Assembly (NCBI GenBank): GCA_943369755.1
Contig: CALROG020000005.1
Location: 49,689 to 113,688, forward strand
Direction of reading: 5' to 3'
Source: Ramlibacter sp. 2FC
GTDB taxonomy: Bacteria; Pseudomonadota; Gammaproteobacteria; Burkholderiales; Burkholderiaceae_C
DNA length: 64,000 nt
Shown here: piece by piece, positions 3,893 through 56,120 of the stretch
Layout: each line of letters begins with the position of its first letter
Numbering within the stretch: the first letter of the stretch is position 1
Notes under the pieces: model-generated
Databases searched by the model: none
Seen by the model: the letters and a program-made list of their open reading frames with translations, nothing else
What the model was told of the DNA's origin: nothing
Program-made: the position numbers and the translations under genes

Positions 3893-4249
3893 GTGCTTGG
3901 CGTTATTTTGTTTGCCCATGGTTCGCGTGACCCGCTGTGGCGCAAGCCCATTGAAGCGGTGGCCGAGCGCATCCGCGCCAGTGCGCCGACGGTGCCTGTG
4001 CGTTGCGCCTACCTGGAGCTCAGCACCCCTGATCTCCCCACTTCCGCTACTGATTTAATAGCGGCTGGCGCAACACTGGTGCGGGTTACACCGCTTTTTC
4101 TGGGTACCGGAAAGCATGCCCGGGAAGACTTGCCCTTGCTGATGGAGCAGCTCCGTGCCACCCACCCGGCCATACAGTTCGAACTGCAACAAGCCGTGGG
4201 AGAAGACCCGCGGCTCACCGCACTGATGGCCGAAATAGCCCTGGGCTGA
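3893..4249 (+). CDS. cbiX: Small CbiX-type sirohydrochlorin chelatase
   Basis: In-frame GTG at 3893 just after the lptG stop. ILFAHGSRDPLW and VTPLFLGTGKH are CbiX/SirB motifs. The upstream part of the ORF-track frame overlaps lptG. Confidence 0.75.
   Translation: MLGVILFAHGSRDPLWRKPIEAVAERIRASAPTVPVRCAYLELSTPDLPTSATDLIAAGATLVRVTPLFLGTGKHAREDLPLLMEQLRATHPAIQFELQQAVGEDPRLTALMAEIALG
4044..4092 (+). repeat. Family-A interspersed repeat, copy 1 (divergent, inside cbiX)
   Basis: ccGCTACtgaTTTAATAGCGGCTggCGCAacactggtGCGGGTTaCAcc matches the family consensus. It introduces TTA and ATA codons into a high-GC ORF. Confidence 0.7.
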
Positions 4250-4304
4250 CGTTCTCATAGACCTGATCGGTCATAATGAACCCTTGTCTTAGTAGACATT
4301 CAAT

Positions 4305-5249
4305 ATGAACCTGCATCAGTTCCGTTTTGTCCAGGAGGCGGCCCGGCGCAACCTGAACCTGACCGAGGCCGCCAAAGCCTTGCACACCTCCCAGCCCGGC
4401 GTCTCCAAGGCCATCATTGAGCTGGAAGAAGAACTGGGCGTTGAGATTTTTGCCCGCCACGGCAAGCGCCTCAAACGCATCACCGAGCCAGGCCAGCATG
4501 TGCTGAAAAGCATTGAACTGATCATGCGTGAGGTCAGCAACCTCAAGCGCATCGGTGAGCAGTTCAGCGCCGAGGACAGCGGCACGCTGTCCATTGCCAC
4601 CACCCACACCCAGGCCCGCTACGTGCTGCCGGTGCCCGTGGTCAAGCTGCGCGAGGCCTACCCCAAGGTCAACGTCAGCCTGCACCAGGGTACGCCCGAC
4701 CAGGTGGCCCGCATGGTGCTGGACGAAGTGGCCGAGATCGGCATTGCCACCGAGTCGCTGGCAAACTACCCCGAGCTGGTAACCCTGCCCTGCTACGAAT
4801 GGCAGCACATGCTGGTGCTGCCTCCAACCCACGCATTGGCAAAAAAAGAACGGCTGTCACTGGACGACCTGGCAACCGAACCGATCATTACCTACCACCC
4901 GTCTTTCACCGGCCGTACCCGCATCGACAACGCCTTTGCCACAAAAAAGCTCACGCCGCGAATTGCGCTGGAAGCAATTGACTCAGACGTCATCAAAACC
5001 TATGTGCGCCTGGGTCTGGGCATTGGCATCGTGGCCGAGATGGCGGTGCGGGATGACGGCAGCAACGCCGACCTGGTGGTGCGCCCGCTTGGCCACCTGT
5101 TTGGCCAGAACGTGGCGCGCGTGGCCTTCAAACGCAGCGCCTACCTGCGCAACTTTGTCTACAAGTTTGCCGAGTTGCTAAGCGACCGGCTCGACCGCAA
5201 CCTGATCGCCAGGGCCATGACCGGCCATGTGAATGACTATGAGCTCTGA
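4305..5249 (+). CDS. cysB: LysR-family regulator, CysB/Cbl type
   Basis: N-terminus MNLHQFRFVQEAARRNLNLTEAAKALHTSQPGVSKAIIELEEELG is close to the CysB HTH. 314 aa. Confidence 0.8.
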   Translation: MNLHQFRFVQEAARRNLNLTEAAKALHTSQPGVSKAIIELEEELGVEIFARHGKRLKRITEPGQHVLKSIELIMREVSNLKRIGEQFSAEDSGTLSIATTHTQARYVLPVPVVKLREAYPKVNVSLHQGTPDQVARMVLDEVAEIGIATESLANYPELVTLPCYEWQHMLVLPPTHALAKKERLSLDDLATEPIITYHPSFTGRTRIDNAFATKKLTPRIALEAIDSDVIKTYVRLGLGIGIVAEMAVRDDGSNADLVVRPLGHLFGQNVARVAFKRSAYLRNFVYKFAELLSDRLDRNLIARAMTGHVNDYEL

Positions 5250-6423
5250 CACCACCATCGACCGCACGCCGCTCCTGCAAACCAAGCTGCCCGCAGTAGG
5301 CACCACCATCTTTACCGTCATGTCGGGGCTGGCCGCCGAAAAGGGAGCGGTGAACCTGGGCCAGGGCTTCCCCGACTTTGACTGCGACCCACAGCTTGTG
5401 AACGCCGTCACCGACGCGATGGGCAAGGGCCTGAACCAGTACCCCCCCATGCCAGGCGTGCCGGTGTTGCGCGAAGCCATATCGCAAAAGATTCAGGCCA
5501 TGTACGGCCGCCATTACGACGCCGCGACCGAAATTACCGTCACCGCGGGGGCCACGCAGGCCATCATCACCATCATCCTGGCGGTGGTTCGACCTGGGGA
5601 CGAAGTGATTGTGCTGGAACCCTGCTATGACAGCTATGTACCCAATATTGAACTGGCTGGCGGCAGCGTGGTTCGCGTGCCGCTCACGCCCGGCACCTTC
5701 CGGCCCGACTTCGACAAAATCGCGGCGGCCATCACGCCCAAAACCCGTGCCATCCTGATCAACAGCCCGCACAACCCCAGCGCCACCGTCTGGACGCGGG
5801 ACGACATGCTCAAGCTGCAGGAACTGCTGGCCCCCACGGACGTGCTGCTGATCAGCGACGAGGTGTACGAACACATGGTGTACGACGGGCAAGACCACCA
5901 GAGCGCCGCCCGTTTTCCCGGCCTGGCGGCACGGGCCTTCATCGTCAGCAGCTTTGGCAAGACCTATCACGTGACGGGCTGGAAAATCGGCTACGTGGCC
6001 GCGCCCGCGCCGTTCACGGTTGAATTTCGCAAGGTGCACCAGTTCAACGTGTTCACCGTGAACACGCCGATGCAGTACGGCCTGGCCAGTTTCATGGCAA
6101 ACCCCCAGCCGCACCTGCAACTGCCCGCCTTCTACCAGCGCAAGCGCGATTTGTTCCGCGATGGCCTCGAGGCCACCAAGTTCAAGCTGCTGCCCAATGA
6201 GGGCAGCTACTTTCAGTGCGTGGACATCTCAGGCCTGGCCGTGCCCGAGCGCAACCTGCCCGATGGCGAGTTCTGCAAGTGGCTCACTACCGAGGTGGGC
6301 GTGGCAGCCATTCCGCTTTCAGCCTTCTATGGCAACGGCTTCGACCAGCGCGTGGTGCGCTTTTGCTACGCCAAGAAGGACGAAACGCTACACGCTGCGC
6401 TGGGGCGGCTGGCACGGCTTTAG
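5233..6423 (+). CDS. PLP-dependent aminotransferase class I (YbdL/methionine aminotransferase-like)
   Basis: 396 aa with NLGQGFPDF, INSPHNPSA and the Lys motif SSFGKTYHVTGWKIGY. The start may be ATG 5239 instead of 5233. Confidence 0.85.
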   Translation: MTMSSDTTIDRTPLLQTKLPAVGTTIFTVMSGLAAEKGAVNLGQGFPDFDCDPQLVNAVTDAMGKGLNQYPPMPGVPVLREAISQKIQAMYGRHYDAATEITVTAGATQAIITIILAVVRPGDEVIVLEPCYDSYVPNIELAGGSVVRVPLTPGTFRPDFDKIAAAITPKTRAILINSPHNPSATVWTRDDMLKLQELLAPTDVLLISDEVYEHMVYDGQDHQSAARFPGLAARAFIVSSFGKTYHVTGWKIGYVAAPAPFTVEFRKVHQFNVFTVNTPMQYGLASFMANPQPHLQLPAFYQRKRDLFRDGLEATKFKLLPNEGSYFQCVDISGLAVPERNLPDGEFCKWLTTEVGVAAIPLSAFYGNGFDQRVVRFCYAKKDETLHAALGRLARL

Positions 6424-6486
6424 CCAGCCGCCGTACATGATGGCGTCGGCCATCGCCAGTGAATGTATCTGCGATAGCGCACGCTG

Positions 6487-7223: not shown

Positions 7224-10200
7224 CTACTGATTCAACTGCCCCCATACCTTGTCCAGCCGCTTGATGCTCACTGGCTGCGGGGTGCGCAGCTCCTGGGCGA
7301 AGAAGCTCACCCGCAGCTCTTCCAGCAGCCAGCGCAATTCGCTCATGCGGTCATCCACGCTGCCCTTGCGCTCGGCCACAAGACGCCAGTAGCGCTGTTC
7401 CTGCGGGCGCAGCTCGGCCAGCTTTTGGGCGTCGCGTGCCGGGTCAGTGCGCAGCTTGTCCAGCCGCAGGGTAATGGCCTTCAGGTAGCGGGCAAAGTGC
7501 TGTAGCTGGGCCCAGGGGGTGTTGGCCACAAAGCGTTTGGGCATCAGGCGTTGGAGCTGCTGGGCCACGTCGGCTGTGGCGTCAGGCTGGTTTTTGGTGT
7601 CTTTCAGCTTGCGCGTGGCACCGGCGTATTCCAGCAAAATCAGGCCCGCCAGCCGTGCCACTTCATTGGCGATCAGGGTCAGCCGCCCCCTGCCCTCGTC
7701 CACCCGGCGCTTGAAGTCCAATTCGTTCTTGGGCAACGGCTCCAGCAAAAAGGCGCGCTCCAGCGCCAGGTCGATGATCTGGTCGCGCAGCTCTTCCTGG
7801 GTCCCCAGGGGCATGAAGGCCACGGCCATTTTTTGCAGCTCGGGGATGTTCTTTTCCAGGTACTTCAGCGCGTCTTTTATCTGCAATGCAAACAGGCGGC
7901 GCAGGCCCGCGCGGTGCTTGGCGGCGGCCACCTCGGGCTCGTCAAACACCTCAATGCTCACCGCGTCTACACCGTCGATCAGCGCCGGAAAACCAATCAA
8001 GGTTTGCCCGCCTTTTCGGATTTCCATCAGCTCGGGCAGCTCACCGAAGCGCCAGGCGGTGTAGCGCTGGTCAGTCGCCTGCGCCGCGCTTGCTACACTT
8101 TTTATAGTGGCTCCCGCAGCATCTACGCGGGCTACAGCCTGATTCGTTGCTTTTTCAGGGCTGGCGGCGGTCACCGCCCCTTTCATTGCGGCCAGCGCCT
8201 GGAAGGCACCGCGCGCCTGTGCGCCCAACTCGGCCTTGAGCGCGCCCAGGTTGCGTCCGGTGCCGAGCTGGCGGCCATGCTCGTCGACCACGCGGAAGTT
8301 CATGAACAAGTGCGGTGCCAGCATGTCGAGCTTGAAGTCGGCTCGCTTGACGTCCAGGCTGGTTTCGTCGCGCACAAGTTTCAGCAACGCGTCGGTCAGG
8401 CTGCCGCCGCCCCAGGCTTGTGGCGTGCTCAAGGCCGCAGCCAGCCGCGCGGCCGACTCCGGCAGCGGCACAAAGCGCGAGCGCGGGCGCTGTGGCAGGC
8501 TTTTCAGCAACGCCTGTACCTTGTCCTTCAGGATGCCGGGCACCAGCCATTCGGCGCGCTCGTCGCTGACCTGGTTCAGCACAAACAGCGGCACTGCCAC
8601 TGTCAGGCCGTCGCGCGGGTCGCCGGGCTCATGCAGGTAGCTGGCGGCGCAGTCCACGCCGCCCATGCGAATCGTCTTGGGGAAGGCGTTGGTGGTGATG
8701 CCCGCTGCCTCATGGCGCATCAGTTCGTCGCGGGTGAGCTTGAGCAGCTCGGGCTGCTTGCGCGCCTCTTCGCGGTACCACTGCTCAAAGCCCAGGCCAC
8801 TGCAAATGTCGGGCGGCAGCTGCTGGTCGTAAAAGGCAAAGATCAGTTCGTCGTCCACCAGCACGTCTTGCCGGCGGGCCTTGTGCTCCAGCTCTTCCAC
8901 CTGGCCAATGAGCTTGTGGTTGGCCGCCAGGAAGGGCAATTTGGTTTCCCAATGGCCGGCAACGAGCGCCTCGCGGATGAAGACTTCGCGGGCGGCGTGC
9001 ATGTCCACCCGGCCAAAATTCACCCGCCGACCGCTGTACACCACCAGGCCGTAGAGCGTGGCGCGCTCCAGCGCCATCACTTCGGCGGCCTTTTTTTCCC
9101 AGTGCGGGTCCAGCAACTGTTTTTTGAGTAGATGGCCGGCTACCTGCTCGATCCATTGCGGCTCGATGTTGGCAAGGCCGCGGCCAAACAGGCGCGTGGT
9201 TTCCACCAGCTCGGCCGCCACGATCCAGCGGCCCGGCTTCTTGCTCAGGTGCGCGCCGGGGTGGCGATGAAACTTGATGCCGCGGGCCCCCAGGTATTCC
9301 GACTGCCCGGAGCCGCTTGTCCTGGGCCCGGTCGACGGGTTCGAGGCGGCTTCTTCCAGCTTGTAGCCAATATTGCCCAGCAGGCCGGCCAGCATCGACT
9401 TGTGCAGCTCTTCGTAGCTGGCGGGCAGCGTGTTCAGCCGCCACTGGTGCTCGGCCACCACGGTATGGAGCTGGGTGTGAATGTCGCGCCACTCGCGCAC
9501 CCGGCGCACGCTGACAAAGTTCTGCCGCAATAGCTGCTCGTACTGGCGGTTGCTGAGCTTGTGCGCCTGGTTGTGGCCGCCGCGCGCGTCGTTGATCCAC
9601 TTCCACAGCTTCAAATAGCCGCTGAACTCGCTTTTTTCGTCGTCAAATTTGGCATGGGCCTGGTCGGCCTGTTGCTGCGCGTCCATGGGGCGGTCGCGCA
9701 CATCCTGCACGCTCAGGGCGGCGGCAATCACCAGCACCTCGTCCAGCGCGCCACGGCTGCGCGCCTCCAGAATCATGCGCCCGACCCGTGGGTCAAGGGG
9801 CAGCTTGGCCAGCTCCCGGCCCGTGGGCGTCAGCTCGTTGGCGTCGTCCACCGCGCCCAGTTCGTTGAGCAACTGGTAGCCATCGGCAATGGCGCGGCCA
9901 GAAGGCGGCTCGATAAACGGGAACTGCGCGACATCGCCCAGGCGCAGCGACTTCATTCGCAAGATCACCCCAGCCAACGAGCTGCGCAGGATCTCCGGGT
10001 CGGTAAAGCGCGGACGGGCGTTGAAGTCTTTTTCTTCGTAAAGCCGGATGCAAATGCCATCGGCCAGGCGGCCGCAGCGGCCTGCGCGCTGGTTGGCGGC
10101 GGCCTGGCTGATCGGTTCCACCAGCAACTGCTCGACCTTGCTGCGAAAACTGTAGCGCTTAACCCGCGCCGTGCCGGCGTCGACCACAAAACGGATGCCG

Positions 10201-11222
10201 GGCACCGTGAGCGAGGTTTCGGCCACATTGGTGGCCAGCACTATGCGGCGGGCGCTGTGGCTGTCGAAAATCTGGTCTTGCTCGGCCTGGCTCAGCCGCG
10301 CAAACAGCGGCAGCACCTCGGCGTTGCGCGTCAGTGGGCTGTGCGACAGGTGGCGGCGCAGGTGGTCGGCGGCCTCGCGGATTTCGCGCTCGCCGGGCAA
10401 AAACACCAGAATGTCACCGCTGGCGTTACCTGCCCAAAGTTCGTCCACCGCGTCGGCAATGGCGTCATTCAGGTCGTGCTCGCGGCTTTCCTCGAAGGGC
10501 CGCCAGCGTTGCTCCACCGGGAACATGCGCCCCGAGACCATGATCACGGGAGCAGGCAGCCACTCGCCCCCACGCTCCCCCACTACGTGTGGGTCGCTGC
10601 CCCCCGAGGGGGCCTCGCCCGCCTTGGGGCGGCCCGGCGGCGGGCGACGCGACGCAAAATGCCGGGCAAACCGGTCGGCATCAATCGTGGCGGACGTAAC
10701 GATCACCTTCAGGTCAGGCCGGCGCGGCAGTATCTCGCGCAGGTAGCCCAGCAAAAAGTCGATGTTCAGGCTGCGCTCATGGGCCTCGTCAATGATGATG
10801 GTGTCGTAGGCCTTCAGCAGCGGGTCGGTCTGGGTCTCGGCCAGCAAAATGCCGTCGGTCATGAGCTTGACGGACGCGTCACGGCTCAGCCGGTCCTGAA
10901 AGCGCACCTTGAAACCCACCACCTCACCCAGCGGCGTGTCCAGCTCCTGCGCAATGCGTTTGGCCACGCTGCTGGCCGCAATGCGGCGCGGCTGGGTGTG
11001 GCCAATCAGCTGGCCCTTTTGGCCGGGCGCTGCATTGAGCTTGCCGCGCCCCATCGCCAGCGCAATTTTTGGCAACTGGGTGGTTTTGCCCGAGCCGGTT
11101 TCACCGCAGACGATCACCACCTGGTGCGCCGCAATGGCGGCCATGATCTCGTCGCGCTTGCCCGAGACCGGCAGTGATTCAGGGAAGGTAATGCTCAGTT
11201 GCGCCAAGGCTCGATAACTCAA
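7224..11222 (-). CDS. hrpA: ATP-dependent RNA helicase HrpA (DEAH box)
   Basis: 1332 aa with GETGSGKTTQ, DEAHERS and TSAT motifs and a long HrpA C-terminal region. The start is TTG at 11222. It carries two repeat-derived in-frame insertions (see findings). Confidence 0.95.
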   Translation of the reverse strand: MSYRALAQLSITFPESLPVSGKRDEIMAAIAAHQVVIVCGETGSGKTTQLPKIALAMGRGKLNAAPGQKGQLIGHTQPRRIAASSVAKRIAQELDTPLGEVVGFKVRFQDRLSRDASVKLMTDGILLAETQTDPLLKAYDTIIIDEAHERSLNIDFLLGYLREILPRRPDLKVIVTSATIDADRFARHFASRRPPPGRPKAGEAPSGGSDPHVVGERGGEWLPAPVIMVSGRMFPVEQRWRPFEESREHDLNDAIADAVDELWAGNASGDILVFLPGEREIREAADHLRRHLSHSPLTRNAEVLPLFARLSQAEQDQIFDSHSARRIVLATNVAETSLTVPGIRFVVDAGTARVKRYSFRSKVEQLLVEPISQAAANQRAGRCGRLADGICIRLYEEKDFNARPRFTDPEILRSSLAGVILRMKSLRLGDVAQFPFIEPPSGRAIADGYQLLNELGAVDDANELTPTGRELAKLPLDPRVGRMILEARSRGALDEVLVIAAALSVQDVRDRPMDAQQQADQAHAKFDDEKSEFSGYLKLWKWINDARGGHNQAHKLSNRQYEQLLRQNFVSVRRVREWRDIHTQLHTVVAEHQWRLNTLPASYEELHKSMLAGLLGNIGYKLEEAASNPSTGPRTSGSGQSEYLGARGIKFHRHPGAHLSKKPGRWIVAAELVETTRLFGRGLANIEPQWIEQVAGHLLKKQLLDPHWEKKAAEVMALERATLYGLVVYSGRRVNFGRVDMHAAREVFIREALVAGHWETKLPFLAANHKLIGQVEELEHKARRQDVLVDDELIFAFYDQQLPPDICSGLGFEQWYREEARKQPELLKLTRDELMRHEAAGITTNAFPKTIRMGGVDCAASYLHEPGDPRDGLTVAVPLFVLNQVSDERAEWLVPGILKDKVQALLKSLPQRPRSRFVPLPESAARLAAALSTPQAWGGGSLTDALLKLVRDETSLDVKRADFKLDMLAPHLFMNFRVVDEHGRQLGTGRNLGALKAELGAQARGAFQALAAMKGAVTAASPEKATNQAVARVDAAGATIKSVASAAQATDQRYTAWRFGELPELMEIRKGGQTLIGFPALIDGVDAVSIEVFDEPEVAAAKHRAGLRRLFALQIKDALKYLEKNIPELQKMAVAFMPLGTQEELRDQIIDLALERAFLLEPLPKNELDFKRRVDEGRGRLTLIANEVARLAGLILLEYAGATRKLKDTKNQPDATADVAQQLQRLMPKRFVANTPWAQLQHFARYLKAITLRLDKLRTDPARDAQKLAELRPQEQRYWRLVAERKGSVDDRMSELRWLLEELRVSFFAQELRTPQPVSIKRLDKVWGQLNQ
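8090..8141 (+). repeat. Family-A interspersed repeat, copy 2 (inside hrpA, antisense to the gene)
   Basis: ttGCTACacTTTTTATAGTGGCTccCGCAgcatctacGCGGGCTaCAGCCtg. hrpA translates it as AVARVDAAGATIKSVASAAQ. Confidence 0.9.
10572..10646 (+). repeat. Family-B GC-rich repeat, copy 1 (inside hrpA helicase core)
   Basis: Shares the identical blocks TCGCTGCCCCCCGAGGGGGC and GGGGCGGCCCGGCGGCG with the copy at 46060-46130. hrpA reads it as RRPPPGRPKAGEAPSGGSDPHVVGERGGEW. Confidence 0.85.
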
Positions 11223-13978: not shown

Positions 13979-14578
13979 ATGGCCGCCGCGGGCGACCTGC
14001 CAGACAACGCTGTCCAGCCAGCGGACCGCATGGCCTGGCGCACCTGGCTTGAGCAACACCACACACGCCCCCATGGAGTGTGGCTTGTGACTTTCAAGAA
14101 AGGCAGTGGCCACCCGGTCCTGGGCTACGACGACGCCGTCCGGGAGGCTCTTTGTTTCGGCTGGGTGGACAGCAAGCCGCGCAAACTCGACACGTTGCGC
14201 ACCATGCTGTGGTTTGCCCCGCGCAAGGCCGGCAGCGGCTGGTCTGCCTTGAACAAGGCAAGGATCCAGGCGCTGCTGGCGGCAGGCCGCATGGCACCTG
14301 CCGGTTTGGCCAAGCTCAACGCCGCGCAGGCCGATGGGTCATGGAACGCGCTCGATGCTGTGGACGCTCTCGAAGAGCCCGCCGACTTGCAGGCCGCGCT
14401 CAGCCGCCATCCGGGTGCCGCAACCAACTTCGCAGCATTCCCCCGCTCGGCGCGGCGCGGCATTCTGGAATGGATCAGTAACGCGAAGCGCCCGCACACC
14501 CGGGCCAGGCGGGTCGAAGAAACGGCGGAGCTGGCAGCGCGCAACATCCGCGCCAACCAGTGGCAACCCAAGGCCTAA
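13979..14578 (+). CDS. YdeI/OmpD-associated family protein
   Basis: WRTWLEQHH...VWLVTFKK...YDDAVREALCFGWVDSKPRKLD and the C-terminal ...RRGILEWISNAKRPHTRARRV are characteristic of this family. Confidence 0.7.
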   Translation: MAAAGDLPDNAVQPADRMAWRTWLEQHHTRPHGVWLVTFKKGSGHPVLGYDDAVREALCFGWVDSKPRKLDTLRTMLWFAPRKAGSGWSALNKARIQALLAAGRMAPAGLAKLNAAQADGSWNALDAVDALEEPADLQAALSRHPGAATNFAAFPRSARRGILEWISNAKRPHTRARRVEETAELAARNIRANQWQPKA

Positions 14579-15090
14579 CTTCGCAGCGGCCGCAGCAGAC
14601 GCACCAGCAGCGCAGCAAACACCACGCCGAAAATCGCAAACCACACAAACGACCAGTTGGCGATCGACAGGCCCAGAAAGGTCCAGTCGATCTTGGTGCA
14701 GTCGCCACTGCCCTTGAAGATCATCGGCACGGCGCGTTTGAGCGGGAAGGTTTCGATCATCCCGTAGAAGTCGCGCCCGCAGGACACGATCTCGGGCGGG
14801 TACCACTGCAACCAGCTCTGGCGCGCAGCCACAAAGGCGCCGAACCCGGCAAACAGCAAGGCCAGCGCGCCGCCGCCGATTTGCAAGCCTTTTCGGCCTG
14901 TAGCCCCCGCCAATGCTGCGCAGAGTGCTACCAGAATAAGAGCGTACCGCTGCACGATGCACATCGGGCAGGGCTCCAGCCCCACCCCGTGCTGCAAATA
15001 CAGGCCAAAGGCCAGCATGGCCACGCAGACCGCGGCCACCGCGCCAAATACCCGGCGCGGGTAGGCGTCAAACCAGTTCAGAGAAGTCAA
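14575..15090 (-). CDS. dsbB: Disulfide bond formation protein B
   Basis: 171 aa, 4 TM, first-loop CPMC motif ([12 protein letters not shown]) and a second periplasmic Cys pair. Confidence 0.85.
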
Positions 15091-16664: not shown

Positions 16665-16667
16665 ATC

Positions 16668-16717
16668 GGCGCTAGCCCGCGTGTGTATTGCGGTAGCCAC
16701 TATATTTTTTGTAGCAA
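16668..16717 (-). repeat. Family-A interspersed repeat, copy 3 (reverse orientation, between convergent genes)
   Basis: The reverse complement reads ttGCTACaaAAAATATAGTGGCTacCGCAatacacacGCGGGCTaGCGCC. Its TAG is the stop codon of the 16700-17446 gene. Confidence 0.9.
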
Positions 16718-20320: not shown

Positions 20321-20372
20321 CTTACTATGAAATTGATAGTGGCTCACGCAGATTCCACGCGGGCTAGCGGCC
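20321..20372 (+). repeat. Family-A interspersed repeat, copy 4 (spans the start of the DUF934 gene)
   Basis: cttACtatgaaaTTGATAGTGGCTcaCGCAgattccacGCGGGCTaGCGGCC. It contains the ATG at 20327 and encodes MKLIVAHADSTRASG. Confidence 0.85.
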
Positions 20373-20707: not shown

Positions 20708-20708
20708 A

Positions 20709-43838: not shown

Positions 43839-45500
43839 TCATAAAAATTTGCTGGTTATAGGATAGCGCCAATCTTTGCCAAAGCTGCGGTGGCTGACCC
43901 TGATGCCCACTGGTGCCTGGCGGCGCTTGTACTCATTGATCTTGATCAGCCGGGTCACCCGGTCAACGTCAGCGCGGGCGTAGCCGGCAGCAACGATCTC
44001 GTCGGCCGACTGGTCGTTTTCCATGTAGCGCTCCAAAATCGCGTCCAGCACCTCGTAGGGCGGCAGGCTGTCCTGGTCTTTCTGGTCGGGCCGCAGCTCG
44101 GCGCTGGGTGGGCGGGTGATGATGCGCTCGGGAATCGGGTTGGCACCCGTACCGTAGGGGTCGTTGGCATTGCGCCAGTGCGCCAGTCTGAATACCGTGG
44201 TCTTGAGCACGTCCTTGATCACCGCGAAGCCACCGGCCATGTCGCCATACAGCGTGCAGTAACCAGTGGCCATCTCACTCTTGTTGCCGGTGGTCAGCAC
44301 GATGCTGCCGAACTTGTTGCTCAGGGCCATCAGCAACGTGCCCCGGATGCGGGCCTGAATGTTCTCTTCGGTCGTGTCTTCGGCCCGGCCTGCGAACTCG
44401 CTGGCCAGCGCCGCCTTGAAGGCCTCGAACTGCGGCACGATTGAAATTTCGTCGTAGCGCACGCCCAGGCGCCGGGCCATCTCGCGCGCGTCGATCCAGG
44501 AAATGTCGGCGGTGTAGGGCGAAGGCATCATCACTGTACGCACCTTGTCGCGGCCCAGGGCGTCAACCGCGATGGCCAGCACCAGGGCTGAATCAATCCC
44601 GCCCGACAGGCCCAGAATCGCACCGGGAAAGCCGTTCTTGCCGATGTAGTCACGCACGCCCAGCACCAGCGCGTCCCACAAATCCGCCTCGACGCTGCGT
44701 TCGGGCACCGAATTCGCTATGATTTTTATAGCGGCTCCCGAACGCTCCACGCGGGCTGGAAACATGTTTTCTTCAAAACTCGGGGCCCGCCCGGCCAGAC
44801 TGGCGTCGGCGTTCACGGCGAATGAGTGCCCCTCAAAAACCACCTCGTCCTGGCCACCCACCAGGTGCGCATAAACCAGCGGCAGGCCGCAGGCGCGTAC
44901 CCGCTCAAGCATAGTCTGTTCGCGCTCGCTGCCCTTGCCGACGTGAAACGGCGAGGCATTGATCACCGCCAGCAGCTCGGCACCGGCGTCCTTGGCGGCC
45001 TGGGCGGGGGCCTGGAACCACGCGTCTTCACAGATCAGCAGGCCCACCTTGATGCCTTGCACCTCGAACACACAAGTGCCGGTGCCTGGCGTGAAGTAGC
45101 GGCGCTCGTCAAACACCTGGTAGTTGGGCAGCTCACGTTTGGCGTAACTGGCGATCACCGCGCCCTCGCGCAGCACACTGGCCGCGTTGTGGCGCTGCGT
45201 AATGGCCACACTGCGGGTGCGTTGGTCGCCGCCGGTCGGGTGGCCCACCACCACCGTCATGCCCTTTAACCCGGCCAATTCGCGGGCCACCCGCTTCACG
45301 GCATCATCACAGGCGGCAATGAAGGCCGGGCGAAGGAACAGGTCTTCCGCCGCATAGCCGCAAATCGAGAGTTCGGGTGTCAGCAACAGCCGGGCACCGT
45401 CCGCGTAAGCTGCATGGGCAGCCGCCACGATCTTGCTGGCGTTGCCCGGCATGTCGCCCACGACGAAATTGAGTTGGGCGACGCAAAGTTTGAGAGTCAT
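43839..45500 (-). CDS. nadE: Glutamine-dependent NAD(+) synthetase
   Basis: N-terminal CN-hydrolase domain (LICEDAW) and C-terminal PP-loop LGLSGGIDSALV. Carries a family-A repeat in the inter-domain region. Confidence 0.95.
   Translation of the reverse strand: MTLKLCVAQLNFVVGDMPGNASKIVAAAHAAYADGARLLLTPELSICGYAAEDLFLRPAFIAACDDAVKRVARELAGLKGMTVVVGHPTGGDQRTRSVAITQRHNAASVLREGAVIASYAKRELPNYQVFDERRYFTPGTGTCVFEVQGIKVGLLICEDAWFQAPAQAAKDAGAELLAVINASPFHVGKGSEREQTMLERVRACGLPLVYAHLVGGQDEVVFEGHSFAVNADASLAGRAPSFEENMFPARVERSGAAIKIIANSVPERSVEADLWDALVLGVRDYIGKNGFPGAILGLSGGIDSALVLAIAVDALGRDKVRTVMMPSPYTADISWIDAREMARRLGVRYDEISIVPQFEAFKAALASEFAGRAEDTTEENIQARIRGTLLMALSNKFGSIVLTTGNKSEMATGYCTLYGDMAGGFAVIKDVLKTTVFRLAHWRNANDPYGTGANPIPERIITRPPSAELRPDQKDQDSLPPYEVLDAILERYMENDQSADEIVAAGYARADVDRVTRLIKINEYKRRQAPVGIRVSHRSFGKDWRYPITSKFL
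44713..44760 (+). repeat. Family-A interspersed repeat, copy 6 (inside nadE, antisense to the gene)
   Basis: ttCGCTAtgaTTTTTATAGCGGCTccCGAAcgctccacGCGGGCTgGA. nadE reads it as FPARVERSGAAIKIIANS. Confidence 0.85.
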
Positions 45501-45507
45501 ACCAGCA

Positions 45508-46791
45508 GTGCAAAACAGTTCAAACGATTATGTCATCCGGGTTTTGGCTTCGCCGCTTGAGGTGAATGCTGCCGACTGGAACGCCCTGCACGCGCTGCAA
45601 GCCCACGCCAGCCCCTTCATGCGCCACGAATACCTGGCCGCCTTGCACGAAAGCGGCTGCGCCACACCCGCCACCGGCTGGACGCCGCGCTTTGTCACAC
45701 TGTGGCGCGCCGACCAATTGCAGGCCGCCTGTGCGCTCTACCTGAAGGCGCATTCGTACGGCGAGTACGTGTTTGACTGGGCCTGGGCCAACGCCTATGA
45801 GCAGCATGGCCTGGCCTACTACCCCAAGGCCACAGTGGCGGCACCGTTCACTCCGGTGCCTGGCGCGCGGCTGCTGGCGCGTGACGCGCCCGCCCGTTCC
45901 GCACTGGTGCAAGCGCTGGTGAGCTGGTGCAGCGCCCAGGGTCTGTCGTCGCTACACCTGCTGTTTGCGGCACCAGACGATGTGGCCGCCTGTGAGAAAG
46001 CAGGGCTCATGCTGCGACACACAGTCCAGTTCCACTGGAAGAACATGGCCCCCGCGCTCGGCACTGGCGTGTCCTCGCTGCCCCCCGAGGGGGCGAGTTT
46101 CGCCGTGGGGCGGCCCGGCGGCGAAACCGGCTATCCCGATTTCGACGCCTTCCTCGCCACCTTGAGCCAGGACAAGCGCAAAAAAATCCGCCAGGAGCGG
46201 CGCAAGGTGGCCGACGCGGGTGTGTGCTTTCGACACGCGCAGGGTCGCGACATCACACCAGCAGACTGGGACTTTTTTTACCGCTGCTACGAACGCACCT
46301 ACCTGGAGCATGGCAATGCGCCCTACCTGACGCGCGACTTCTTCCGGCGCATGGCCGACACCATGCCCGAGGCCTGGCTGCTTTTCACGGCGGAGCGCGC
46401 GGGCCAGCCAGTTGCTACAAGTTTAATAGCGCTTCACGCAACACCCATGCGCTCTGGTGGCCAATTTGGCTTGAAAGCGCAGGAAAAAGTAGCCTACGGC
46501 CGCTACTGGGGTGCACTGGAGCGGGTAGACTGCCTGCACTTTGAGGCCTGCTACTACCAGCCATTGCAGTGGTGCATTGCGCAGGGCTACGACCGCTTTG
46601 AAGGCGGCGCCCAGGGCGAACACAAGATGGCCCGCGCACTCATGCCGGTGCGCACCACCAGTGCCCACTGGCTGGCTCACCCCGCCTTTGCCGACGCCGT
46701 GCAGCGCTTTTTGGAGCGTGAAGGCCAGGGCATCGAAAACTATGTCGAGCACCTGGCGCAGCGCAGCCCGTTCAGGCACGAACCCGCTTGA
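45508..46791 (+). CDS. GNAT/FemAB-like protein of unknown function (COG3146-like)
   Basis: GTG 45508 lies just beyond the divergent nadE start. WNALH...SPFMRHEYLAALHESGCA...GWTPRF and C-terminal FEGGAQGEHKMARA are as in this family (recollection). Contains one family-A and one family-B repeat in frame. Confidence 0.7.
   Translation: MQNSSNDYVIRVLASPLEVNAADWNALHALQAHASPFMRHEYLAALHESGCATPATGWTPRFVTLWRADQLQAACALYLKAHSYGEYVFDWAWANAYEQHGLAYYPKATVAAPFTPVPGARLLARDAPARSALVQALVSWCSAQGLSSLHLLFAAPDDVAACEKAGLMLRHTVQFHWKNMAPALGTGVSSLPPEGASFAVGRPGGETGYPDFDAFLATLSQDKRKKIRQERRKVADAGVCFRHAQGRDITPADWDFFYRCYERTYLEHGNAPYLTRDFFRRMADTMPEAWLLFTAERAGQPVATSLIALHATPMRSGGQFGLKAQEKVAYGRYWGALERVDCLHFEACYYQPLQWCIAQGYDRFEGGAQGEHKMARALMPVRTTSAHWLAHPAFADAVQRFLEREGQGIENYVEHLAQRSPFRHEPA
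46060..46130 (+). repeat. Family-B GC-rich repeat, copy 2 (in frame in the 45508-46791 ORF)
   Basis: ggcactggcgtgtccTCGCTGCCCCCCGAGGGGGCgagtttcgccgtGGGGCGGCCCGGCGGCGaaaccgg. Translated as GTGVSSLPPEGASFAVGRPGGETG. Confidence 0.85.
46412..46462 (+). repeat. Family-A interspersed repeat, copy 7 (divergent, in frame in the 45508-46791 ORF)
   Basis: ttGCTACaagTTTAATAGCGCTTcaCGCAacacccatGCGCTCTgGTGGCC. Translated as VATSLIALHATPMRSGG. Confidence 0.75.
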
Positions 46792-47857: not shown

Positions 47858-48316
47858 ATGGACCGCGCTGCTGGCGACCCCGCCGATCTCTACAGCCTGC
47901 TCTATTGCAGCCGCGCCACCGCCCTGATGACGCCGGAAGAGTTGCCGCACATCATGGGCAGCGCCTGGCGCCACAACCGACCCATGGCCGTCACCGGCCT
48001 GTTGGTTCTGGGCGGCGGCCTGTTCTTGCAATGGCTGGAAGGGCCGCGCGCCAATGTGCGCGAACTCATGGGGCGGCTGCTGAAAGACCCCCGGCACGAT
48101 TGCCTGACCGAGCTGCACGCCTACGCACATGCACCGGGTACAACGCGCCTCTATCCGTCCTGGAGCATGCAGTACGTCAGCCCGATGGAGATTCTGGGCG
48201 TGCTCGAACAAGAGCGGCGCAAGTCGCCGCACCAGAGTCATGCGCACGCGATCAACCTGCTGATGGATCTTCTGCAGGCCGGTAGCGGGCCGCTGGCCGG
48301 GCTGCGTCAGGCCTGA
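47858..48316 (+). CDS. Short BLUF-domain blue-light FAD sensor protein
   Basis: LYSLLYCSRA...MTPEELPHIMGSAWRHNRPMAVTGLLVLGGGLFLQWLEG has the BLUF Tyr, Gln and Trp/Met landmarks. 152 aa with no output domain. Confidence 0.85.
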   Translation: MDRAAGDPADLYSLLYCSRATALMTPEELPHIMGSAWRHNRPMAVTGLLVLGGGLFLQWLEGPRANVRELMGRLLKDPRHDCLTELHAYAHAPGTTRLYPSWSMQYVSPMEILGVLEQERRKSPHQSHAHAINLLMDLLQAGSGPLAGLRQA

Positions 48317-48336: not shown

Positions 48337-48876
48337 TCAGGCCGGGTTGGCCTTGGTGTAGTTGGCAATGCCGTCCAGGATTTCTTTCTTGGCGGCCTCG
48401 GGGCCTTCCCAGCCCAGAATCTTGACCCACTTGCCTTCTTCGAGATCTTTGTAGTGCTCAAAAAAGTGCGCAATGGTCTTCAGTCGCACCGGGTTCAGGT
48501 CTTCAGGCTTTTGCCATTGGGTGTAAATGCCCAGAATCTTGTCGGTGGGAACAGCCAGAACCTTGCCGTCTTCACCGGCCTCATCTTCCATTTTCAGGAT
48601 GCCAATAGGCCGGCAAGTCACTACCACGCCAGGAATCAGCGGCACCGGCGTGATGACCAGCACGTCAACCGGATCGCCGTCACCGCTGATGGTCTTGGGC
48701 ACATAGCCGTAATTGGTGGGGTAGTGCATGGACGTGCTCATGAAGCGGTCCACAAAAATCGCGCCGGACTCTTTGTCCACTTCGTACTTCACCGGGTCGG
48801 CGTTCATCGGGATTTCGATGATCACGTTGAACGAGTCAGGAACATTCTTGCCGGGGGAAACTTTGTCTAGTGCCAT
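48337..48876 (-). CDS. ppa: Soluble inorganic pyrophosphatase (family I)
   Basis: 179 aa with [11 protein letters not shown] and DGDPVDVLV. Confidence 0.95.
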
Positions 48877-49103
48877 GGTTTTTTCTGCGGGAAACTAAGG
48901 AGAAGGGAATATCAGGATTAACCCTGATTTTACTTTCGCCAGCCTTGCTTTGCGTGTGATGGCCACGGAAACGTCACGGTTTGCGCTTATATTCCGCCCG
49001 TTGGCCAATCGTCTCCGCCAGTTGGGAGCGACGAGGAAGCAACGCAGCGGGGGTACCGCTTGCGTGGCACCCCCTCCAAGCGAAACAACGTAGGAGATTA
49101 AAC

Positions 49104-51200
49104 ATGACAGGCAACTCAGCGCTGATTCTGGCGCTCGTCTGCGGGCTTATTGCTGTTGCATACGGCATTTGGGCACGCGGCTGGATTCTTTCCCAGGACG
49201 CAGGCAACCCCCGCATGCAAGAAATTGCGGCGGCCATTCAGGCCGGCGCAGCCGCCTACCTGGCACGGCAATACAAAACCATTGCCATCGTTGGCGTGGT
49301 GTTGGCCGTGCTGATCGGGCTGTTCCTTGACGTCAAGACATCGATCGGCTTTGTGATTGGCGCGGTGCTCTCGGGTGCTTGCGGCTTCATTGGCATGAAC
49401 GTCTCGGTACGTGCCAACGTACGCACCGCGCAGGCCGCCACCCGCGGCATTGGCCCGGCACTGGATGTGGCCTTTCGCGGCGGTGCCATCACCGGCATGC
49501 TGGTGGTGGGACTGGGCCTTTTGGGCGTTGCCGGTTTTTACTGGTACCTCACGGCCGGTGGCATTCCGGCCGACGGCAAGGCTTTTGCCACGCTGCTCAA
49601 CCCCTTGATCGGCTTTGCCTTCGGTTCGTCGCTGATCTCGATCTTTGCCCGCCTGGGCGGCGGCATCTTCACCAAGGGTGCTGACGTCGGCGCTGACCTG
49701 GTGGGCAAGGTGGAGGCCGGCATCCCCGAAGACGACCCGCGCAACCCCGCGGTGATCGCCGACAACGTGGGCGACAACGTGGGCGACTGCGCCGGTATGG
49801 CCGCCGACCTGTTTGAAACCTACGCCGTGACGCTGATCGCCACCATGGTGCTGGGCGCGTTGCTTGTGGCTGCGGCCCCGGTCAATGCGGTGCTGTACCC
49901 GCTGGCGCTGGGCGCGGTGTCCATCGTTGCGTCCATCATCGGTTGCTTCTTCGTCAAGGCCTCGCCCGGCATGAAGAACGTGATGCCGGCCCTGTACAAG
50001 GGCCTGGCGGTGGCCGGTGTGCTGTCGCTGATCGCGTTTTACTTCGTGACCCAAAGCCTGTTCCCGGCCCCGATCAAGCTCGAAGGTGGCGTGATTCTGT
50101 CCAGCACCAACCTGTTTGGTGCCTGCTTTGTCGGCCTGGCCCTGACCGCAGCACTGGTGTGGATCACCGAGTTCTATACCGGCACCCAGTACTCACCGGT
50201 GCGCCACATCGCACAAGCCTCCACCACGGGCCATGGCACCAACATCATTGCGGGCCTGGGCGTGTCGATGCGCTCCACCGCCTGGCCGGTGGTGTTTGTG
50301 TGTATCGCGATCATGGCCTCGTTCAAGCTGGCTGGCCTGTACGGCATTGCCATCGCCGCCACTTCCATGCTGAGCATGGCCGGTATCGTGGTGGCACTTG
50401 ACGCCTACGGCCCCATCACCGACAACGCCGGTGGCATTGCTGAAATGGCCGAACTGCCCGCCAGCGTGCGCGACGTGACCGACCCGCTGGACGCAGTGGG
50501 TAACACCACCAAGGCCGTCACCAAAGGCTACGCCATTGGCTCGGCGGGCCTGGCCGCACTGGTGCTGTTTGCCGACTACACCCACAAGCTGGAAACTTAC
50601 GGCAAGGCCATCAGCTTTGACCTGAGCGACCCGATGGTGATCGTGGGCCTGTTCATTGGCGGCTTGATCCCCTACCTGTTCGGTGCCATGGCCATGGAGG
50701 CCGTGGGCCGCGCCGCCGGTGCCGTGGTGGTTGAAGTGCGCCGCCAGTTCCGCGAGATCAAGGGCATCATGGAAGGCACGGCCAAGCCTGAATACGGCAA
50801 GGCCGTAGACATGCTGACCACAGCCGCCATCAAGGAAATGATCGTGCCGTCGCTGCTGCCGGTGGTGGTGCCAATTGTTGTGGGCCTGGTACTTGGCCCC
50901 AAGGCGCTGGGTGGTTTGCTGATGGGCACCATCGTCACCGGCCTGTTCGTGGCCATTTCGATGTGTACCGGTGGCGGTGCCTGGGACAACGCCAAGAAGC
51001 TGATTGAAGACGACTTTGTCGACAAAGACGGCGTGACCCACAAAAAGGGCGGCGAAACCCACAAGGCCGCCGTCACCGGCGACACCGTGGGCGACCCCTA
51101 CAAGGACACTGCCGGCCCGGCCATCAACCCGCTGATCAAGATCATCAACATTGTGGCGCTGCTGATCGTGCCGCTGGTGGTGAAGTTCCACGGCGGCTGA
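49104..51200 (+). CDS. hppA: Membrane H(+)-translocating pyrophosphatase, K(+)-independent type
   Basis: ATG 49104 after [47 protein letters not shown] and GNTTKA (Lys form). Confidence 0.95.
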
Positions 51201-51218: not shown

Positions 51219-51250
51219 CAAAAGGCCCGCAGTTGCGGGCCTTTTGCTTT
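51219..51250. terminator. Bidirectional-looking rho-independent terminator between hppA and the convergent acyl-CoA ligase gene
   Basis: caAAAGGCCCGCagttGCGGGCCTTTTgctttg. Confidence 0.85.
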
Positions 51251-51300
51251 GCTACACTTTTTATAGTGGCTAACGCAGCCCCTATGCGGGCTGCAGCCTG
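51249..51300 (+). repeat. Family-A interspersed repeat, copy 8 (intergenic)
   Basis: ttGCTACacTTTTTATAGTGGCTaaCGCAgcccctatGCGGGCTgCAGCCtg. Confidence 0.9.
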
Positions 51301-51302
51301 TT

Positions 51303-52982
51303 TTATGCCCAAACCACCGGGCCTTTGGCGGCGTACCACTTCTCGGTTTGCTCGCCTACCACTGCCTCAATCTTGTTGCGCTTGATCTTCATGGTGGGCG
51401 TCAGGCAGCCGTTTTCAATCGACCAGGGCTCACGCGCCACCACGATCATGCGCAGTTGCTCGTAGTCGGGTACCCGGGCGTTAACGCGCTTGAGCACGGC
51501 GGCCAGTTCAGCCTCAAACTCGGCCTTGAATGCCGCGTCAGCCAGCTTCGGGCGCACGCCCTCGGCGGGCACCACGATGGCATAGGCGGCCTGTTGGCCG
51601 ACCCCGGAAACCAGTGACAGCTCGACCATGGGGCACTCGTTGATCATGTTTTCGATCGGTGCGGGGGCCACGTACTTGCCCTTGCCGGTCTTGAACAGTT
51701 CTTTTTTGCGCCCGGTCAACTTGAGCTGGCCGCCTGCGCCGATTTCGCCCAGGTCGCCCGTGCGAAAGAAGCCGTCGGCAGTGAAAGACTCGGCGTCCAG
51801 GTCGGGCCGCTTGTAGTAGCCCACCAGCGTGCCAAGCGACTTGATCAGCACTTCACCGTCTTCCTCGAGCCGACGCTCCACGCCGGGGAACGGAATACCC
51901 ACGTAGCCCGGGTCTTTCAGCACCTTGGTGGTGGTATGTGAGAAGGCAAAGTCTTCGGTCATGCCGTAGCCTTCGACCAGATGCAGCCCAAGGCGGCGAT
52001 ACCAGGCAATCAGCGCGGGCGGAATCGGTGCAGAGCCGCTGCCGGCCTGGATCACTTCATTCAGCCCCAGCTTGGTCAGCACCTTTTTGGCAACGATCTT
52101 GCCCAGAATCGGGATTGACAGCAGCCGGTCCAGCTTCTTTTGCGGCATGTTGGCAAACACGCCCTGCTGGAACTTGAGCCAAAGCCGGGGCACCGAAATG
52201 AACACGGTGGGCCGCGCACGCTGCATGTCTTGCACAAAGGTGTCGAGCGACTCGGCAAAGAAAATATGGCCGCGACCCAATACCAGGCCCGCACATTCCA
52301 CCCAGGCGCGCTCAAAAATATGCGCCAGCGGCAAATACGACAGCACGCGGTAGGTAAAGCCCTGGCCCAGCTCCTTTTCCTGGTAGGCCACGATGCCTTC
52401 GCTGGCCCGACTGGCGCGCTCGAAACTGTGCATCACGCCCTTGGGCGTGCCAGTCGAACCCGATGTGTACATCAGCAATGCAATGTCTTTGCCGTCGCGC
52501 GCAGGCTTGCCCGCCAGCGGTTCGGACTTGGCAACGATGCTGTCCCAGGTTTCGTAGCTGTTCTTGGGCGACAGGGGCAGCGCAATGCAAGGCAGCCCTG
52601 GCGGAATGCCACCGACTTGCTGGTCAAAGGTGTCGAGCTTTCCAACAAACAGCAGGCTTGCACCGCTGTGCTCCAGCACGTACTTGACGGTGTCAGCCGA
52701 CTCGGTGGGGAAAATCGCCACCGTGGTGCCACCTGCCATCCAGATCGCCAGCTCGGTCATCATGAAATGCGCGGTGTTCTTGGACAGAATTGCAATCCGC
52801 GCGCCGGGCTCGAAGCCGCGGCCCTTGAGGTGCGTGGCCATGCGACGGGCCTGGTCCATCATCTGGCCCCAGGTGTAGTCCACCACCATGCCGCCGCCTA
52901 TTGGCTGGGTCAGGTAGATTTGATCGGCACGCGCGGCTTCGTGTTCGTATACGTAGTCAAGAATCAGTTTCTGGCTGGGCAT
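51303..52982 (-). CDS. AMP-dependent acyl-CoA synthetase (long-chain fatty-acid-CoA ligase-like)
   Basis: 559 aa with AMP-binding motif LMYTSGSTGTPKGV, plus GYGMTE and TGDLG motifs. Confidence 0.9.
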   Translation of the reverse strand: MPSQKLILDYVYEHEAARADQIYLTQPIGGGMVVDYTWGQMMDQARRMATHLKGRGFEPGARIAILSKNTAHFMMTELAIWMAGGTTVAIFPTESADTVKYVLEHSGASLLFVGKLDTFDQQVGGIPPGLPCIALPLSPKNSYETWDSIVAKSEPLAGKPARDGKDIALLMYTSGSTGTPKGVMHSFERASRASEGIVAYQEKELGQGFTYRVLSYLPLAHIFERAWVECAGLVLGRGHIFFAESLDTFVQDMQRARPTVFISVPRLWLKFQQGVFANMPQKKLDRLLSIPILGKIVAKKVLTKLGLNEVIQAGSGSAPIPPALIAWYRRLGLHLVEGYGMTEDFAFSHTTTKVLKDPGYVGIPFPGVERRLEEDGEVLIKSLGTLVGYYKRPDLDAESFTADGFFRTGDLGEIGAGGQLKLTGRKKELFKTGKGKYVAPAPIENMINECPMVELSLVSGVGQQAAYAIVVPAEGVRPKLADAAFKAEFEAELAAVLKRVNARVPDYEQLRMIVVAREPWSIENGCLTPTMKIKRNKIEAVVGEQTEKWYAAKGPVVWA

Positions 52983-55413: not shown

Positions 55414-55511
55414 GAAAAGCAGTGCAGACTTGCAGTTGTGTCGGCCACCCGACAGACTGGCCGGGCGCACAGCCCGAGAATTCTGTGCACGCGATCAAAA
55501 AGGAGCCGCCC

Positions 55512-56042
55512 GTGAAAACCCTGACCGACCAGCTAGCGAAGTACGCAGCCTATCACCGTGACCCGCGCAACATTGCCAGCCACTTCATCGGAATACCGAT
55601 GATCGTGCTGGCTGTGGCAGTACTGTTGGCACGCCCAGCCTGGGGCAGCATGGGTGGCGTTGCCCTGACCCCGGCATTGCTGCTGACTGCCGTCACGGTG
55701 CTGTATTACCTGCGGCTTGACCTGCGCCTGGGCCTGTTGATGGGCCTGCTGATGGCGCTGAACCTGTACGCAGCGCAATGGTTCGCCGTGCAGTCCACCA
55801 GTTTCTGGCTGGGCTCAGGAGTCGGCCTGTTTGTGGCCGGCTGGTTGATCCAGTTCATCGGCCACTACTACGAGGGCAAGAAGCCCGCGTTTGTGGACGA
55901 CATCATGGGCTTGATCATCGGCCCGCTGTTTGTGGTGGCCGAAGCAGTGTTTGCGCTTGGCCTGCGCGGGCCCTTGTTGCGTGAAATTGAGGCCCGCGTT
56001 GGCCCGGTGCGCAAACGTGACATCAGCGCCAGTGCCACGTAA
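55512..56042 (+). CDS. DUF962 (Mpo1/YGL010w-like) membrane protein
   Basis: GTG 55512, 6 nt after AGGAG. YAAYHRDPRNIASHFIGIP...FIGHYYEGKKPAFVDD matches the family core. Confidence 0.75.
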   Translation: MKTLTDQLAKYAAYHRDPRNIASHFIGIPMIVLAVAVLLARPAWGSMGGVALTPALLLTAVTVLYYLRLDLRLGLLMGLLMALNLYAAQWFAVQSTSFWLGSGVGLFVAGWLIQFIGHYYEGKKPAFVDDIMGLIIGPLFVVAEAVFALGLRGPLLREIEARVGPVRKRDISASAT

Positions 56043-56068
56043 CTAATTTCACTCAATTCGAACCTGGT

Positions 56069-56120
56069 TTGCTATTATTTTTATAGTGGCTCACGCATTC
56101 TGTATGCGGGCTGCAGCCTG
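56069..56120 (+). repeat. Family-A interspersed repeat, copy 9 (intergenic)
   Basis: ttGCTAttaTTTTTATAGTGGCTcaCGCAttctgtatGCGGGCTgCAGCCtg. Confidence 0.9.

Follow-up and report, generated by a model that had tools for sequence, protein, structure and literature searches.

The DNA described here is a 64,000-nucleotide stretch from Ramlibacter sp. 2FC (referred to below as the window), which is the only part of the source genome represented in this analysis. It contains ten copies of a short interspersed repeat that recurs across the Comamonadaceae. An earlier note on the window had listed nine of these copies. Each of the nine was recovered with an nhmmer model built from the other eight, with E values of 5e-5 for the copy at position 4044 and of 1e-8 to 2e-15 for the remaining eight, demonstrating that the nine loci are real and can be aligned with one another. 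A model built from all nine matched its own copies with E values of 5e-21 to 2e-15 and had no other match in the window below 0.01. An iterated profile that drew on the window and on related loci added a tenth copy, on the reverse strand at 14871 to 14945, so the original list was sound but incomplete. The positions first given for the two other reverse-strand copies fall within the element, the cores lying at 16643 to 16717 and 27934 to 28008. The copy at 4044 is the most divergent family member in the window; it and a possible remnant at approximately 38 kb are the least certain members.

The copies share one consensus, as had been proposed, but the conserved unit is approximately 75 nt long rather than approximately 50 bp because conservation runs past GCGGGCT. 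The unit reads TTGCTAY-N7-RTAGC, a few bases, GCGCA, a variable block of 8 to 9 nt, GGGCT-RGRGCC, and ATTT-GGCTTGAAA; what follows GCGGGCT is RGRGCC, then the ATTT box, and then GGCTTGAAA. The core TTTTTATAGTGGCT, with up to two mismatches allowed, occurs four times in the window versus 0.06 occurrences expected from shuffled sequences. GGCTGCAGCC is found in two copies only and GGCTACAGCC in a third. The 8-nt block, singled out earlier as hypervariable, was the most variable segment both in the window and among 59 members of the family found in other genomes. At the TAGC of the 3' half-site and at G28, G41, and C44 the family shows little or no variation, while other boxes vary by lineage. 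Readings of the boxes as sigma-70 or sigma-54 promoters, as IHF, Fis, or FNR sites, or as tRNA-like features were discarded, the spacings not fitting when compared by eye with the consensus.

Genes in the window were called from third-position GC content and confirmed with Pfam; gene starts are approximate. Six of the ten copies lie fully in frame within genes, one includes a start codon, two include stop codons, and one is purely intergenic. Where the repeat is translated in frame, it is read on its own strand in the cbiX, dsbB, FemAB-like (fem), and DUF934 genes and on the opposite strand in hrpA, nadE, and a TonB-dependent receptor gene. Copy 1 (4044 to 4118, forward strand) was placed with nhmmer and Pfam in frame in a CbiX-like gene (open reading frame [ORF] 3647 to 4249), where it encodes ATDLIAAGATLVRVTPLFLGTGKH. 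Copy 2 (8090 to 8164, forward strand) is read in frame on the opposite strand within hrpA (7224 to 11222, reverse strand). It encodes ..AVARVDAAGATIKSVAS within the hypervariable linker of the HrpA DUF3418 region; the ..AIK[SN].. peptide recurs at this point in many HrpA orthologues but not in others. The copy that had been missed, copy 10, lies in frame in dsbB (14575 to 15090, reverse strand) and encodes transmembrane helix 2 and the loop that follows. Copy 6 (44714 to 44788, forward strand) is read in frame on the opposite strand within nadE (43839 to 45500, reverse strand) and specifies SFEENMFPARVERSGAAIKIIAN, where the CN-hydrolase domain ends. Copy 7 (46412 to 46486, forward strand) is in frame in the FemAB-like gene (45433 to 46791, forward strand), with its 5' box encoding the universally conserved VATSLIA and the remainder being a net insertion of approximately 33 to 45 nt.

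The remaining copies lie at gene ends or between genes. Copy 4 (20322 to 20396, forward strand) directly follows the cysI stop codon and holds the ATG at 20327 and approximately the first 22 codons (MKLIVAHADSTRASGQNVLVLG..) of a DUF934 gene, in which the DUF934 profile match begins at residue 23. The opposite strand of copy 5 (27934 to 28008, reverse strand) encodes the N terminus and signal-peptide core (..FKPNWPLARMGTALATTIFIASLAQAQQ) of a TonB-dependent receptor (27915 to 30086, forward strand), the start of which is uncertain (27915 or 27972). This receptor gene, not a thiamine biosynthesis gene, is preceded by a thiamine pyrophosphate riboswitch at 27735 to 27845 (forward strand, 58.8 bits). 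Copy 3 (16643 to 16717, reverse strand) spans the gap between two convergent genes and holds both of their stop codons, a TAG at 16702 to 16700 for a response regulator gene and a TAA at 16662 to 16664 for an FAD oxidoreductase gene. Copy 8 (51249 to 51323, forward strand) follows the terminator hairpin of an H+-pyrophosphatase gene, and its ATTT box holds the TAA stop (51303 to 51305) of a convergent AMP-binding-enzyme gene. Copy 9 (56069 to 56143, forward strand), flanked by genes for an Mpo1-like protein and an aldehyde dehydrogenase, is the sole purely intergenic copy. The possible remnant, of low confidence, is CCTAATTCAGTC on the gene strand at 38028 to 38040 (forward strand), approximately 12 nt at most, in the spacer between ilvB and ilvH.

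The copies make up 0.97% of the codons in the window, yet they contain 21% of its ATA codons, 13% of its TTA codons, and 12% of its CTA codons. Stop-to-stop ORFs run through the repeat, whose frames are open, and this can create apparent fusions and overlaps (7224 to 11222, reverse strand; 43839 to 45500, reverse strand; 45433 to 46791, forward strand). For example, the nadE and fem-like ORFs overlap at 45433 to 45500, with an unlikely TTG start. The copies can mislead annotation through the local clusters of rare codons, the alternative start and stop codons, and the ORF-fusion artifacts that they generate.

To survey the family, we retrieved 80 loci that surround nadE orthologues, in genomes sampled one per species, with the closest NadE sharing 87% identity (L numbers below denote fetched loci). 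They represented Rhodoferax, Polaromonas, Curvibacter, Ramlibacter, Hydrogenophaga, and unnamed Comamonadaceae metagenome-assembled genomes. The iterated profile found 155 copies in the 1.41 Mb made up of the window and these loci; because related loci were picked around nadE and dsbB, the classes of copies recovered are subject to ascertainment bias. The same gene positions were occupied across genera of the Comamonadaceae. When the consensus was searched against 72,556 plasmids, matches were found in Comamonadaceae plasmids only, one of them inside cobN. A pattern scan of viral contigs gave a single exact match (L081:4454-4494, an IMG/VR contig).

One syntenic class of copies lies downstream of ilvC (L015:18737, L018:18770, L035:19606, L041:19873, L050:19817, and L052:19689). 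In this class the 3' box (GGAGGCCAATTT or CAGGAGT...) is a Shine-Dalgarno sequence directly followed by the ATG of a gene whose product begins MHDG[DE]; here the repeat has been exapted as the region that initiates translation.

Several copies add no length to the genes that carry them. Positions 1 to 105 of the CbiX Pfam profile correspond, position for position, to residues 91 to 195 of ORF 3647 to 4249, and because the match is continuous there is no insertion at copy 1. The nadE copy aligns residue for residue with the Burkholderia and Acinetobacter NadE structures (PDB 4f4h and 5kha). It is also collinear with 33 orthologues in which the model detected no copy, most of which encode a similar peptide in GC-rich codons. 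The dsbB copy aligned without gaps to 80 DsbB orthologues, of which 22 were detectably element-like, with the rest specifying transmembrane helix 2 in GC-rich codons. Likewise, the IA[AT]SLIA motif of the FemAB-like gene is encoded by ATCGCCGCCAGCCTGATCGCC in element-free genomes and by the 5' box of the element, ATTGCTACAAGTTTAATAGC, in element-bearing genomes. The stretches overwritten in this way would include a DsbB transmembrane helix, NadE and CbiX beta strands, and a signal peptide. In DsbB, for example, the overlays replace V with C, S, or F, and in NadE and HrpA they convert Q-A to G-A. We considered nadE as the progenitor of the family and rejected it because this would leave the equally collinear dsbB, cbiX, and fem copies unexplained.

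Elsewhere, orthologous sites are polymorphic for the presence of the repeat, as in the ilvB-ilvH spacer, a moeA-like gene, and the fem-like gene. Between the ilvB stop and the ilvH motif, 13 relatives have a copy of 58 to 75 nt, always in one orientation, and in many genomes this spacer is empty. The moeA-like gene has an in-frame addition of at least 66 nt in L021 and L005 that is absent in L049 and L027. In the FemAB-like gene the segment from IA[AST]SLIA to AYGRYWG measures 45 to 63 nt without the element and 84 to 90 nt with it. These results demonstrate that copies arose at least partly by insertion and that both net insertions and length-neutral overlays occur. The copy-bearing loop of the FemAB-like protein appears to be a repeated landing site. 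In L044 (3930 to 4106) a unit resembling the BRE repeat (GCTGCCCCCCGAAGGGGC) is nested in the repeat copy of the fem-like gene, and L018 and L028 have in common an unrelated in-frame block of approximately 96 nt nested in the same copy.

The ilvB-ilvH spacer has further features. An ilvH RNA motif (RF02993, 84.8 bits) lies between the two genes at 37950 to 38017 (reverse strand), and the copy found in the 13 relatives is directly upstream of it; in L001, L002, L009, and L010 the 5' arm of the repeat merges with the start of the motif. A GC-rich hairpin, GGGCAGACCGCAGCGGCATGGCTGCAAGCTCTGTCC, directly follows the ilvB stop in the window (38040 to 38085, gene strand) and in L065 (9940 to 9985) but is missing from the majority of relatives. 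It may act as a terminator or attenuator that precedes the ilvH motif. The idea that the spacer in the window is a decayed full copy was rejected, since most of it is this separate hairpin, which it has in common with L065.

The 5' end of the consensus, TTGCTAY.., and the reverse complement of its 3' end, TTTTCAAGCC.., do not match, and the repeat therefore has no terminal inverted repeats. No transposase family was found when 38 ORFs of the 64-kb window were scanned against Pfam. A TCAACT direct repeat flanks the L065 copy, although the empty site in the window differs, and TTAA-like flanks occur in L042 and L046. The description of the family as an unnamed interspersed repeat without a transposase, terminal inverted repeats, or clear target duplications was thus borne out.

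Within genes the repeat is preserved at the nucleotide level. Across 45 genomes from several genera, the third codon positions of the nadE copy are nearly invariant (GCT, 98%; xxA, 100%; AGT, 91%; GAA, 96%; AAT, 84%), whereas the codons flanking the copy have a third-position GC content of approximately 0.8 and variable third positions. This result demonstrates nucleotide-level maintenance against a GC-rich background. Maintenance can also fail across a whole lineage. In the Polaromonas JS666 clade the extra length of the FemAB-like gene is kept as GC-rich sequence and the nadE copy is eroded, whereas sister Polaromonas have kept both copies. In a NadE phylogeny from which the element region was left out, at least 16 state changes are needed for the nadE copy and at least 17 for the fem copy, and the two states change together; they are concordant in 61 of 71 genomes (Fisher test, 1e-9). 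Other copies are 7.5-fold denser in loci with the nadE element (0.68 per 10 kb) than in those without it (0.09 per 10 kb). The loss is lineage-wide and recurrent. GC content was rejected as an explanation for which genomes keep the family, as it does not differ between the two groups.

Copies within one genome resemble each other. Identity between nonorthologous copies was 0.58 to 0.62 within genomes versus 0.53 to 0.55 between genomes (P < 1e-6, with pairs that are not independent), and the within-genome excess held for nadE-fem, nadE-other, fem-other, and other-other comparisons. For example, TAG[TC]GGCT is found in 8 of the 10 copies in the window, including the anciently placed nadE and hrpA copies, whereas orthologous copies elsewhere read TAGCTGCT; it is this variant that turns Q-A into G-A in NadE. 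In the clade of L011, L014, L015, L018, and L028 most copies, whether in nadE, in fem, or intergenic, have GAGGGCT (mostly ACGAGGGCT), with GGGGGCT in its place in the L011 copies. The first 23 nt of copy 2 (in hrpA) and copy 8 are identical, variable loop included. These patterns demonstrate that paralogous copies within one genome share derived variants.

The reading that we favor, with a probability of roughly 45%, is that the repeat is an ancient, dispersed, Comamonadaceae-specific element whose many copies are homogenized by ectopic gene conversion, that is, by concerted evolution. The same conversion would also draw native coding sequence that is partly similar to the repeat (strands of the A-x-x-[LI]-[IV]-A type, helices, and signal peptides) toward the consensus while its length is kept. 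If copy number or conversion collapsed in a lineage, every copy would drift toward GC-rich sequence. On this reading the hypervariable 8 nt would be the least constrained segment, at the apex of a weak GC hairpin, and no dedicated cellular function would be needed. We favor conversion because it accounts for variable loops that are identical between copies, for the sharing of variants, for collapse once copies are few, and for the directional pull on partly similar native sequence.

Several points weigh against gene conversion. No conversion tract was caught between close strains, and conversion is suggested by the shared variants. The within-genome excess in similarity is small and comes from pairs that lack independence. 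Native nadE and dsbB are only approximately 50 to 65% identical to the repeat and thus would be poor substrates for RecA-dependent conversion, which leaves the start of an overlay without an explanation. Joint presence is not absolute: 6 of 10 dsbB-locus contigs with flanking copies have an element-free dsbB. Nor is a seeding route evident: terminal inverted repeats are absent, the window lacks a transposase, and the only flank of note is the ambiguous TCAACT in L065. Finally, a coevolving binding factor would give the same dialects, joint loss, and synonymous-site conservation.

Such a factor is the main rival explanation, and a somewhat less likely one. The repeat would be the recognition site of a lineage-specific trans-acting factor, with the motif kept by selection or by molecular drive, as uptake sequences (USS and DUS) are. 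Candidates could include a DNA- or RNA-binding protein, a domesticated enzyme of the HUH or RAYT type, or a drive system like that of uptake sequences. Genome-specific variants would be coevolving dialects, and loss of the factor would lead to the decay of all sites. The collinear, length-neutral overlays in nadE, dsbB, and cbiX fit this proposal, as do the nearly invariant synonymous sites, the genome-specific variants, and the joint loss at several loci that recurs on the tree. It would also accommodate the occurrence of both orientations, the conservation of sequence rather than base pairing, and the near invariance of the TAGC half-site across genera while other boxes vary by lineage. However, no candidate factor is known or was found in the window, and the motif is far longer and approximately six times sparser than known uptake sequences. 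Single sites are often lost (in the ilvB-ilvH spacer, and in 33 of 78 nadE orthologues), so no single site is essential. That copies 2 and 8 have identical variable loops suggests copying, not selection on a motif, and net insertions exist. A bolder reading is that a composite motif of approximately 75 nt actively overwrites coding sequence length-neutrally and is fixed at synonymous sites, diversified into dialects, and prone to lineage-wide collapse, which would imply a trans-acting maintenance or drive system. We regard this as less likely than not; if true, the family would represent a novel type of overlay repeat acting across the genome, distinct from classical transposons and from short uptake sequences.

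It is unlikely that the repeat is a conventional mobile nonautonomous element, of the type of repetitive extragenic palindromic (REP) sequences or miniature inverted-repeat transposable elements, in which every copy would be an insertion and the likeness among copies would stem from recent transposition. The filled and empty sites, the in-frame net insertions, and the high copy number are what such an element would produce, and, as in REPs, a CTAC tetranucleotide adjoins a small hairpin. This explanation is contradicted for the collinear copies by nadE, dsbB, and cbiX, which have no added length. Copies are syntenic across genera and so have not recently moved, and the hairpins are weak. Besides the absence of terminal inverted repeats and, in the window, of a transposase, no inverted pairs of the REPIN type were found in the window, and 9 of its 10 copies overlap coding sequence.

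The earlier note had interpreted the variable block as the loop of a hairpin. Among our tests only an arm swap gave modest support, and for the GC hairpin alone: native arms were 1.0 kcal/mol more stable than chimeric arms (P = 0.004). RNAalifold, run on 64 copies, found no consensus fold for either strand. The mean fold z score was approximately -1.1, with three short hairpins that can be drawn. Among 59 copies the AT box was 83% paired and almost invariant, the GC hairpin was 54% paired, and covariation did not rise above that of shuffles (44 of 500). Conservation is mainly of primary sequence. Very improbable is a structured RNA, whether a small RNA family or a cis-regulatory, stabilizing, or terminating element: the transcription of most copies within mRNAs, the drawable hairpins, the arm-swap result, and the ilvC-downstream class that supplies a GGAGG Shine-Dalgarno sequence and a start codon speak for it, and the lack of a consensus fold and of covariation, the placement of copies inside genes and in both orientations relative to transcription, and the failure of Rfam to match a single copy, whether at the gathering threshold or with E values of up to 10 allowed, speak against it.

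The earlier comparison with REP-like or Rickettsia palindromic element (RPE)-like repeats was half right: RPEs are the best analogy, and the extragenic REP type does not fit a repeat that overlaps genes in most of its copies in the window. RPEs are short interspersed repeats of 100 to 150 nt without a known transposase. They occur in frame in housekeeping genes, in either orientation and with positions conserved among species, and they add or encode peptide segments that the protein tolerates. They were reportedly described by Ogata and coworkers in 2000 and by Claverie and Ogata in 2003. We know of no description for RPEs of collinear replacement of native sequence of the nadE, dsbB, and cbiX type. 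The Comamonadaceae repeat, too, has open frames on both strands, is tolerated in genes, and is conserved in position across species. It differs from RPEs in being approximately 75 nt long and only weakly palindromic and in belonging to an unrelated host clade, and the likeness is one of behavior. We do not claim membership in the RPEs because the rule that every copy is a net insertion fails: the nadE, dsbB, and cbiX copies add no length, while the moeA and fem copies do.

Parts of the family have been seen before. A motif survey published in 2017 (PMC5217627) listed ATAGCT(N)22CAAAAG, with 125 copies in Polaromonas naphthalenivorans CJ2, 14% of them in genes, and GCTTAT(N)5AAGCG, with 114 copies in Acidovorax ebreus TPSY. 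Both pairs were given as potential novel motifs, mostly intergenic and close to gene ends (PMC5217627). We found that both fall on family members in L040, L114, L155, and L107. These counts of exact motif pairs in two related genomes make plausible the extrapolation, made earlier from the window, to several hundred copies per genome. The survey presented statistical pairs only, with no unit, name, comparative analysis, or mechanism, and the element is thus neither named nor characterized there. What is new here is the unit itself and the observation that it lives embedded in coding sequence, overlays genes collinearly, is conserved at synonymous sites, and evolves in concert. Literature searches with element sequence strings, or with RAYT or REPIN combined with the host genera, returned nothing relevant. 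The BRE repeat (Hot et al. 2011, PMC3110155), a repeat of approximately 90 bp found in Bordetella, Polaromonas, Rhodoferax, Delftia, and Acidovorax with some copies in coding sequences, was rejected as a named match because the BRE sequences in the supplement share no boxes with the Comamonadaceae repeat. BRE has another sequence (TTTTTTGCCGCCGGGCGCCCAAGGCAAAAAGCCCCCTCGGGGGGCAGCAAGC...), a GC content of 69%, and an often tandem arrangement.

Other well-known repeats share some of these properties. REP/BIME, REPIN-RAYT, and ERIC/IRU elements are likewise high-copy-number short repeats that persist vertically and have lineage-specific variants; REPINs decay on loss of the RAYT, and ERICs occur at conserved transcribed positions. 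In contrast to them, the Comamonadaceae repeat lies mostly in coding sequence (in the window), has weak hairpins and no inverted pairs, and has no RAYT seen in the 64 kb. USS/DUS and HIP1 motifs are similar in that they arise in place in genes without a change in length, form genome dialects, and are present or absent lineage-wide. They are cores of 8 to 12 nt at approximately one per kilobase, whereas the Comamonadaceae repeat is a composite of approximately 75 nt at approximately one per 6 kb.

The phenomenon known from RPEs, selfish repeats inside protein-coding genes, is thus extended to free-living, GC-rich Betaproteobacteria. Collinear codon replacement forces rare codons and amino acid changes into essential proteins. 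The family also offers a tractable natural system for the homogenization and recognition of dispersed repeats, and sister lineages that keep or lose it, as in Polaromonas, permit a phylogenetic-profile search for the factor behind it.

The region that precedes copy 8 has an arrangement of its own. A gene for a soluble inorganic pyrophosphatase (48337 to 48876, reverse strand) is divergent from the adjoining gene for the membrane H+-pyrophosphatase (48981 to 51200, forward strand), and a BLUF photoreceptor gene (47858 to 48316) adjoins the pair.

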